Of a DNA stretch of 2,216 nucleotides, positions 159 to 2,216 are shown in pieces. The stretch comes from Escherichia coli. Its GTDB lineage: Bacteria > Pseudomonadota > Gammaproteobacteria > Enterobacterales > Enterobacteriaceae. Position 1 is the stretch's first letter. Every line of letters starts with the position of its first letter. Made by a program: the position numbers and the translations under genes. Under the pieces are notes generated by a model. The model ran no database searches, was not told the DNA's origin, and was given only the letters and a program-made list of their open reading frames with translations. Location: NCBI RefSeq assembly GCF_003334305.1, contig NZ_QOWS01000056.1, one strand, 5' to 3'.

Positions 159-413
159 TTACGTGATCTTTCCCTGGGATACAACTCTGGCAATGGTATC
201 GTGAACAGGAATACCATTTTCAAAATCACCATATTGCTTCAAAAAATCGAGATGTGTTTCCCCGAAATCCTCTATATCTTCCCAACCTTCTGCACCAGAA
301 ATAACGGCACAAATAGTCAACAGTAGAATATCTGACAATTTATGCACCACTTTCCAGGCTTGTCTGTAATCGGGGGTAATAGAAATATGTTCCATCAATT
401 TTTTAAGTTCCAT
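159..413 (-). CDS. Truncated ISAs1-family (H-repeat-associated) transposase, N-terminal fragment, 84 aa; second identical copy created by the tandem duplication
   Basis: Nucleotide sequence identical to 539..793 (the 380-bp unit is repeated exactly). Same Shine-Dalgarno and start context. Confidence 0.8.
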
Positions 414-538: not shown

Positions 539-793
539 TTACGTGATCTTTCCCTGGGATACAACTCTGGCAATGGTATCGTGAACAGGAATACCATTTT
601 CAAAATCACCATATTGCTTCAAAAAATCGAGATGTGTTTCCCCGAAATCCTCTATATCTTCCCAACCTTCTGCACCAGAAATAACGGCACAAATAGTCAA
701 CAGTAGAATATCTGACAATTTATGCACCACTTTCCAGGCTTGTCTGTAATCGGGGGTAATAGAAATATGTTCCATCAATTTTTTAAGTTCCAT
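539..793 (-). CDS. Truncated ISAs1-family (H-repeat-associated, H-rpt) transposase, N-terminal fragment only, 84 aa; probably non-functional as a transposase
   Basis: Residues 1-79 ([79 protein letters not shown]) match, from memory, the N-terminus of E. coli H-repeat proteins (YhhI/YdcC-like, about 378 aa). The ORF then ends after 5 unrelated codons (QGKIT-stop), so the DDE catalytic region is absent. An AAGGTGA Shine-Dalgarno lies 4 nt upstream of the ATG. It resembles my recollection of the 84-aa YbfQ (unverified). Confidence 0.8.
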
Positions 794-797
794 TTGT

Positions 798-804
798 TCA
801 CCTT
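798..804 (-). promoter_or_regulatory. Shine-Dalgarno (AAGGTGA) for the H-rpt ORF starting at 793
   Basis: Minus strand reads ataAAGGTGAacaaATG. Identical elements at 418-424 and 38-44. Confidence 0.5.
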
Positions 805-1018
805 ATTTATGTAAGGAGTATTTGATCATGTATAAGCTATGAAAAACAGCTTTAGACAATAAGTAGTATCTCAATTGTTGAACTTAAAATTCGAATTATT
901 TAGTACAAAAAAGTAGCGTTACGTGATCTTTCCCTGCAAATGGAACGCAAAATAAACACCTATTCCATGAGTTATATAATTTTTCACAATGATTAATTTG
1001 TTTTCTCAGGAAGAGATT

Positions 1019-1588
1019 TTATTTCTCTTCACTACGAATTAGTTCATGCTGTATCTTTATTAAACATTCGTAAGACTCATTTTTGTTCGGGAGATGTGCT
1101 GTCATTCGAGCATAAGTTGGTTTCTCATCTTTAAAATATTTTACCATGATTGAATTATCAAGGACTGCCAACAACTGAACTGGATCACTGCTCTTTTTTT
1201 GATAGATACCCGCTCTTATATAACTTCTAAACCGATCGCCGAGAAACGCCGTTTTTTCTGCTGTATTTATCAACTCCTGCAACGTTCCTTTGATGGCATG
1301 ATTTTCATTAAGGCGTAGTGACCCGACGCGAATTAAGAGTCTCGCCCCGCTTGGTGTGAATTTATTATTTTTACATGTACCCAGTTCTGTTTGCCAATAA
1401 TACTCACCGATGTCCTCATTCTGATACCATCTCCACATGGCTTTATTATTTAAGACAGGAAACGCGGAAAAAATAGTACCCTTAGCGAAAATAGTAAAAC
1501 AATCATGATCTTTAGCTTGTATTTCGCAATCAGCTATAACACCAAAACTAACAAATATCATCAGCAAAAAGAACAAAACTCTTTTCAT
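1019..1588 (-). CDS. Candidate Rhs immunity protein, secreted/periplasmic (N-terminal signal peptide), 189 aa
   Basis: Intact 189-aa ORF whose ATG (1586-1588) overlaps the toxin stop TGA (1585-1587) as ATGA. A GAGG Shine-Dalgarno lies 9 nt upstream. The N-terminus [24 protein letters not shown] has basic residues, a hydrophobic core and a small-residue cleavage region. The gene is AT-rich (about 30 percent GC in a sampled stretch). Immunity role is inferred from position and coupling only. Length and signal peptide resemble my recollection of E. coli YbfC (unverified). Confidence 0.7.
1532..1588 (-). other. Predicted Sec signal peptide (residues 1-19) of the 189-aa ORF
   Basis: [19 protein letters not shown] followed by DCEIQ. 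No canonical lipobox (Asp precedes the Cys), so signal peptidase I cleavage is more likely than lipoprotein processing. Confidence 0.55.
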
Positions 1589-2216
1589 TTTCTTATTCCT
1601 CTCGATGTTCTCTGTTTCATTTTAGCTAAAATTTCACCCAAATCATCTATCCCTGCTGTTGCTGGCCCATCGGGTTTATTAATGTCTGGGAATAAATAGG
1701 GTTCTGCACAAGTATATCCTGGTGGTAATTGAGTTGTTGGCCAATTTGTCTGTGGCAGGTAATCACTTGCTGTCTTTGTATCCATCCCTGGATACTGGGA
1801 ATCATCCTGTGGCGTACAAGTCAGATTTGGTTTTACCCACTTCCTGCAATACAGTGTGTAGTCGTAAGGGCTTAATACTCTGAAGAATGTTTTGAAAACA
1901 TTAGGCGCACTACTGGCCTGGTCAATAGGATATGGCAGTCTTAATTGTTTCGCTATGTCCGGCAATTTACTTGGATCGGGCGTAGGCGGTTTGTTGGGTC
2001 TCGCTCCATATCCGCCATTATTTAAGTGTCCATATTTTGATGCCAGTCCCATTGAATCTATATACTGAACCGGATTCAGCGGATACTGATAAAAATTCCA
2101 TCCCCCCTTCAGCCCAATCGGATCCTGAGTGATATACCTCCCCTGCAGCGGGTCATAATAGCGGTGGCGGTTGTAATACAGGCCGGACTCCTCATCATAC
2201 TGCTGCCCCGGCAGCC
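1585..2216 (-). CDS. Rhs-family polymorphic toxin, 3' portion: end of the conserved Rhs core fused to a variable C-terminal (toxin) domain; 5' end lies beyond the window
   Basis: Minus-strand translation of 2214..2044 gives [57 protein letters not shown] with no stop codon back to the window edge. This is the hallmark C-terminal end of Rhs/YD-repeat cores (established knowledge). The frame continues uninterrupted to TGA at 1585-1587. The supplied ORF (1585..2052) begins at an internal Met only because the true start is outside the window. Confidence 0.85.
1588..2043 (-). other. Variable Rhs C-terminal domain (Rhs-CT, candidate toxin), 152 aa, activity unassigned
   Basis: Sequence immediately after the demarcation motif: [50 protein letters not shown]...[22 protein letters not shown]. 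Pro-rich with 3 Cys. I see no recognisable nuclease, deaminase or other catalytic motif by eye. Position after the core demarcation is where polymorphic toxin domains sit (established knowledge). Confidence 0.6.
1597..1602 (-). promoter_or_regulatory. Shine-Dalgarno (AGAGGA) for the 189-aa ORF, embedded in the 3' end of the toxin CDS
   Basis: Minus strand reads cgAGAGGAataagaaaATG, with 9-nt spacing from GAGG to the ATG. Confidence 0.5.
2044..2216 (-). other. Conserved C-terminal segment of the Rhs core, including the core/CT demarcation motif region
   Basis: Contains DPIGL followed 21 residues later by [10 protein letters not shown], a PxxxxD-x-GL demarcation motif. The segment is markedly GC-rich (about 59 percent by hand count of 2101-2216) compared with everything downstream. 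Confidence 0.8.

Follow-up and report, generated by a model that had tools for sequence, protein, structure and literature searches.

Tandem H-rpt heads at the Escherichia coli RhsC locus: a 54-bp leader patch distinguishing neighbouring copies and a rare additional head

The window analysed here, a stretch of 2,216 nucleotides of Escherichia coli DNA (contig NZ_QOWS01000056.1 of assembly GCF_003334305.1), carries a tandem repeat whose period of 380 bp was returned both by TRF and by a separate repeat search. Alignment within the window revealed no differences between the first two units (1-380 and 381-760), and 12 mismatches with no indels between the 380-bp unit and the third, partial copy (761-936). 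All of these mismatches (positions 838, 841, 853, 856, 857, 861, 864, 866, 877, 880, 884, and 891) lie between 838 and 891, where identity to the unit is 42/54 (77.8%), and the sequence on either side is perfectly conserved over 77 bp (761-837) and 45 bp (892-936). The question raised by this arrangement is where so sharply bounded a patch in the outermost copy comes from, and whether it has any consequence for the minus-strand ORF whose ATG is located at 793, the patch lying 45-98 nt upstream of it.

The 12 substitutions, comprising 7 transitions and 5 transversions, are not clustered by chance, the probability that 12 random differences would all fall within 54 nt being ~2e-5 over 176 nt and ~5e-9 over 380 nt. 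On re-alignment, the patch coordinates, substitution count, flank lengths, and distance to the ATG given in a preliminary description of this DNA all proved correct. Sequencing error, named there as a possible source of the differences, was ruled out because both versions of the patch recur exactly in thousands of finished genomes: the outer version (patch A, 838-891, minus strand) is found 100% identical in >2600 complete genomes and the inner version (patch B) in ~4000.

The window corresponds to the 3' portion of RhsC in E. coli and was matched in 3188 complete genomes of this species. Read along the minus strand, on which its genes and heads lie, it is the downstream end of that locus, with ybfO followed by ybfC and then by tandem H-rpt heads. 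The ybfO homologue (1585-2216), an orphan comprising the 3' end of the Rhs core and a C-terminal tip, exits the window at 2216; its translation (1585-2214) matches NCBIfam RHS_core and TIGR03696 over residues 1-57. At matching loci this position is labelled by RefSeq as 'RHS repeat-associated core domain-containing protein', and MG1655 has ybfO there. The ybfC ORF (1019-1588, 189 aa) is labelled 'protein YbfC' in all matching loci, and the profile scan assigned it to no NCBIfam family. Its start codon shares 4 nt with the ybfO stop in an ATGA overlap (1585-1588). The layout of an Rhs orphan tip and immunity module, that is, core end, variable tip, and small downstream ORF, is thus present, and YbfC is presumed to be the immunity partner of the orphan Rhs tip, both the toxin and the immunity functions being predicted. 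ATGA coupling of the kind seen between ybfO and ybfC is typical of toxin-immunity pairs.

Downstream of ybfC, the tandem repeat is best read as a series of insertion sequence (IS) front ends, here called heads, of which the first two are cut at 380 bp by the next. The left inverted repeat (IRL), CAGGGAAAGATCACG, starts at 936, 556, and 176, and the repeat ends at 936 because the element's IRL starts there; beyond the 936/937 boundary homology stops, and identity is 26%. The first head, H-rptC1 (557-936), is the front 380 bp of an element of the ISAs1 family, with a leader (794-936) in which patch A occupies element positions 46-99 as a locus-specific variant. Its ybfQ-type ORF (539-793, 84 aa), a transposase N-terminal fragment, starts at the ATG at 793 and reads through the head junction, its stop codon lying within the next head's inverted repeat. 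At this junction (552-561), C1 position 380 meets the next IRL (GTATCC/CAGGGA, between 557 and 556), and the same junction recurs at 177/176. The middle head (177-556) is a hybrid of patch B (458-511), a family-consensus H-rpt leader segment, and the truncated C1 ORF (159-413). Of the third head only the first 176 bp (1-176) lie in the window, with the ATG at 33 and patch B at 78-131. It is presumed from its relatives to be H-rptC2 (ybfL), the rest of its ORF lying beyond the window: its patch is identical to that of C2 in strain WCHEC020031, and alignment to GM4792 places window base 1 at the start of a full-length pseudogene. The earlier, generic tandem-repeat view of this region overlooked the succession of IS heads, each beginning at an inverted repeat. 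A short inverted repeat (781-796/937-952) was dismissed as a chance match.

Both truncated heads carry ISAs1-family features and are remnants rather than complete elements. The 84-aa ORF matches Pfam DDE_Tnp_1_assoc (E=4e-27), and of the 314 positions of the NCBIfam transpos_ISAs1 profile only 1-51 are matched, with a score (65.1 bits) that falls short of the 70-bit cut-off. A complete ISAs1-type DDE transposase is absent from the C1 and middle heads, which encode only the N-terminal 84 aa, without the catalytic domain, and have no right ends within the window; in MG1655 and GM4792, ybfL has an inverted counterpart of the IRL, CAGGGAAAGATTACG, at its right end. With ISEc1/ISAs1-family elements such as H-rptB (yhhI) and H-rptE (ydcC), the heads have in common the terminal inverted repeat CAGGGAAAGATC, a leader of ~143 bp, and the DDE_Tnp_1_assoc transposase N-terminus, and the inner patch of the window is within 1-2 bases of the leader of these elements. 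Unlike them, the window's heads end at 380 bp and are unable to encode a transposase, and C1 and C2 are set apart from H-rptB, H-rptE, and C3 by a different sub-terminal inverted repeat and by a spacer before the ATG that is 1 nt shorter. The family is dispersed: E. coli genomes carry its consensus leader at up to 10 places (median, 4), and the same leader was seen in E. albertii, in an Escherichia sp., and in Pseudocitrobacter.

The two versions of the patch differ sharply in their distribution. Of the 5426 complete E. coli genomes searched, 2669 carry patch A, usually once (median, one place), and in ~2627 of these carriers it is 100% identical. Exact copies of patch B were counted in ~4036 genomes (median, 4 places per genome), and its sequence is the consensus shared by E. 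coli, E. albertii relatives, and Pseudocitrobacter; patch B differs by one base from the yhhI (H-rptB) and ybfD (C3) leaders and by two from both ydcC (H-rptE) and the Pseudocitrobacter copy. Patch A differs at 8-14 positions from every other sampled variant, and 7 of its states are unique to it. A sensitive blastn search of the 5426 E. coli genomes found no relative of patch A between 100% and ~87% identity, and a scan of one genome per species, which required conserved flanks, found no A-like patch outside E. coli-derived contigs. Because patch A is unlike all sampled H-rpt leaders and patch B is the family consensus, the outer head is the outlier of the family and the 380-bp unit the bearer of an ordinary leader. 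The remark in the preliminary description that the inner units are no simple copies of the outer one agrees with this, the inner patch being the common H-rpt consensus leader; its suggestion that the array was seeded from another copy was also essentially right, since the repeated head has the patch of H-rptC2 (ybfL) and not that of C1.

Arrays of this kind are not new. Zhao et al. are said to have described, in 1993, three tandem defective H-rpts (H-rptC1, C2, and C3) in RhsC of E. coli K-12, which we take to be the genes ybfQ, ybfL, and ybfD. In the literature that was searched, H-rpts are mentioned in passing only. The K-12 array agrees with the window in locus, order, junction, and patch A. 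MG1655 has C1, C2, and C3 (ybfQ, ybfL, and ybfD) and no middle head, and its C1 head differs from that of the window by one base in 380; the C1 head of the window likewise equals C1 of GE3, WCHEC, and ECCRA but for one site, and window 557-2214 is 100% identical to strain GE3. Two things distinguish the window from the K-12 array. It has one 380-bp head beyond the usual K-12 number, which is why it contains two identical 380-bp units, and its C2-type patch follows the consensus (B) throughout, where that of MG1655, termed variant B', has A-like states at element positions 84, 96, and 99. Counts of B against B' sought with 90- and 139-nt queries were confounded by joined pieces and by partial matches.

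The number of heads varies between strains: there is one in GE3, there are two in MG1655, WCHEC, and ECCRA, and there are three in GM4792 and in the window. The C1-C2 junction was found in 2363 genomes and occurs twice in only 7 of them, and no complete genome has the exact form of the window, in which three heads occur together with patch B; GM4792 matches best (99.5%). In both three-head arrays the middle head combines the C2 patch of its own genome (B in the window, B' in GM4792) with the C1 ORF, which points to two independent duplications, each probably having copied its own C2 patch. Such a head could have arisen by unequal crossover, or by slippage duplication, between C2 and C1 in the 380-bp register. 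The exchange point would lie between element positions 99 and ~180, and the product would be C1, then a hybrid head with the C2 patch and the truncated C1 ORF, and then C2. What is expected of unequal crossover, a hybrid unit in exact register together with copy-number polymorphism (1, 2, and 3 heads), is what we found.

Other products of exchange are represented among finished genomes. GE3 has a single head fused to ybfD, and further arrays have two heads without ybfD or without ybfL. In PSS-13 (L024, 3955-4500), the head adjoining ybfC carries a B' patch and the C1 ORF. In G4/9 (L022, 2304-4616), RhsB harbours a ybfC and H-rptC1 module, with yhhI and yhhJ next in line, and this genome has two copies of patch A; the second head there is C2-like to element position 32 and H-rptB-like from 84, with the switch falling between 33 and 83. 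The G4/9 arrangement is a product of inter-locus Rhs/H-rpt recombination. Two further arrangements were observed in passing. The C2 head that follows in PSS-13 has lost a ~114-bp stretch of its leader that starts near element position 42 and extends slightly beyond the ATG. BL21 (L023, 508-4857) has no C1 head, and more orphan modules (an NTF2-fold immunity protein, a DUF6258 protein, and an Rhs fragment) lie between ybfC and a consensus-type ISEc1, whose left end directly abuts the Rhs fragment.

The extra 380-bp unit could also be an assembly artefact, in which a C1/C2 repeat cycle was walked twice and the true locus has two heads, as in MG1655. The identical stretches of C1 and C2 (element positions 1-45 and 100-180) would create a graph cycle yielding a C2 patch followed by a C1 tail, and the sequence predicted for such an artefact is identical to the one observed; the window is, moreover, bounded on both sides by repeated DNA (an H-rpt head and the Rhs core), and the rarity of double junctions and the lack of a complete genome with its exact form fit this explanation as well. 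We nevertheless regard it as unlikely: the finished genome of K-12 GM4792 also has three heads, PSS-13 and G4/9 carry related exchange products in finished genomes, the head number genuinely varies between 1 and 2 across thousands of genomes, and the window starts at element position 176 and not at the C1/C2 fork (181). An artefact would touch the reality of the third head only; the patch difference between C1 and C2 stays real.

That difference bears the marks of recombination. When the middle head was compared with C1 and H-rptB as parents in a triplet test, the informative sites formed three blocks, 9 C1-like, 11 B-like (element positions 46-99), and 11 C1-like, and a single run of B-like sites would arise by chance with P = 2.5e-7. 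The end of the consensus-like tract of C2 differs between strains, since it stops at element position 81 in MG1655 and GM4792 and at 99 in the window and WCHEC. In one further contig (L017), an E-type inverted repeat is joined to a C-type spacer region, and leader segments reassort across the family. A mosaic with variable tract ends is the mark left by gene conversion between IS copies, dispersed as well as tandem, and the preliminary proposal of recombination or gene conversion among H-rpt copies gains from the single contiguous run of informative sites, from the strain-variable tract end, and from the C2/H-rptB hybrid head of G4/9.

Outside the patch, the C1 and C2 leaders are identical and share the states that distinguish them from the other H-rpts; one of the two must therefore have had a short tract replaced. 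We infer gene conversion of one leader, in either direction. C2 may have acquired its tract from a consensus-type H-rpt, for example the adjacent C3, or C1 may have acquired its tract from an unsampled divergent donor. In favour of a converted C2 are the many potential donors of patch B and the divergence of the patch (11/54), which is close to that between C-type and B/E-type leaders in the rest of the leader (9/45, positions 1-45). In favour of an altered C1 are its flanks, which differ by ~4% from their closest relatives (L016) when the patch alone differs by 20%, and the lack of a patch A donor in the collections searched (5426 E. coli genomes and one genome per species).

The same two observations on C1 fit the proposal that clustered point mutations, for instance from error-prone repair, created patch A within C1 itself, with C2 having kept the ancestral consensus, as do the 7 states of A seen in no other sampled variant and the absence of a donor or intermediate among the 5426 genomes, in which identity falls from 100% directly to 87% or less. 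However, the mixture of transitions and transversions carries no mutational signature, and the A states 57C, 84A, and 96C occur also in E. albertii or cryptic-clade leaders, which suggests a real lineage. Furthermore, the rest of the leader separates C-type from B/E-type copies at a similar rate, so that A could be the unconverted original, and the donor search had its own bounds, being flank-anchored outside E. coli and covering one genome per species there. Mutation in place is in our view quite improbable. We consider it probable, and the best explanation of the data taken jointly, that the window holds RhsC heads in which the patch difference between C1 and C2 stems from gene conversion and the extra head from a later unequal exchange.

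A more speculative thought, to which we give very little credence, is that an H-rpt lineage, extinct or otherwise unsampled, survives only as patch A at the array's edge, where the patch perhaps serves ybfO-ybfC as a 3' end or a regulatory site. If true, it would account for A being single-copy, near-invariant in ~2600 genomes, and un-homogenised by a consensus copy only 380 bp away.

Conversion followed by unequal exchange, our preferred reading, places the array in familiar company. Tandem arrays undergo concerted evolution, with an edge effect, through unequal crossover and gene conversion. Such arrays likewise show identical inner copies, a divergent outermost copy, polymorphic copy number, and hybrid units. 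In contrast to typical examples, there are only two or three units here, each of them an IS head, and the divergence is limited to one 54-bp tract instead of being spread over the edge copy. The patch is thus an ordinary and already known thing, a long-known difference between neighbouring defective H-rpt copies, accompanied in this window by a rare extra unit. Both the K-12 sequence and the literature have contained the defective H-rpt series of RhsC for decades. The finding matters little and makes no open question testable. It offers a clean, small example of homologous recombination among IS remnants beside Rhs loci, through which short tracts are swapped and units are added or lost.

The preliminary description had further proposed that the patch, lying in a probable promoter or leader region, may make the copies differ in expression, and this idea found no support. 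The promoter scan found no sigma-70 consensus on the coding strand of either the A or the B variant, and a lenient scan gave only weak 8/12 matches that differ between the variants. Leader folds were no more stable than those of shuffled sequences (z -0.55 to +0.82), and neither leader nor patch matched any Rfam family, even at E<=1. We thus found no evidence for a regulatory role of the patch, which has no demonstrated function, and the downstream products of the first two heads, 84-aa fragments, would be inert anyway. In Br_190_kylling (L025, 3037-3876), an IS1A copy interrupts patch A near element position 82. That a selected difference in promoter or leader RNA causes the heads to be expressed differently is therefore barely credible: its position upstream of the ATG, the invariance of A among its carriers, and a 7-bp hairpin that is possible in A and B' and not in B speak for it, but at the divergence seen within a species a 54-bp stretch is expected to be invariant, one strain tolerates IS1 within the patch, and the promoter, folding, and ORF results above all count against it. 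A partial 37-nt match in Br_190, taken up as a candidate reciprocal A/B hybrid allele, is really this IS1 insertion.

Several minor features of the leaders and ORFs were recorded. In every folded H-rpt leader variant, the Shine-Dalgarno sequence (AAGGTG or AAGGAG) pairs with an upstream CTCCTTA in a small hairpin before the ATG (799-820, 419-440, and 39-60 on the minus strand of the window), which by analogy may resemble the translational damping of read-through transcripts in other insertion sequences. A terminator-like hairpin with a T-run (TCGGGGAAACACATCTCGA TTTTTTGAAG) lies within both truncated ORFs (627-645 and 247-265, minus strand); two such sites were seen against 0.5 expected, both being the same repeated sequence. 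The sole promoter-like site in the first 1100 bases (953-980, plus strand; TAAACA, a 16-nt spacer, and TATAAT, 10/12) is located in the spacer between ybfC and the H-rpt heads, antisense into ybfC, and is probably due to chance because the promoter scan gave fewer sites than did shuffled sequences.

Repeat units of this kind can be miscounted in short-read assemblies or metagenome bins, for which the present locus may serve as a warning. E. coli RhsC/H-rpt sequence, 98-99.9% identical to the window, was also found on short contigs (L010-L014 and L017-L020) in metagenome bins named Nanosynbacter, Sporosarcina, Collinsella, Planococcaceae, Bacillota, and Flavobacterium, where it almost certainly represents contamination with Escherichia DNA.
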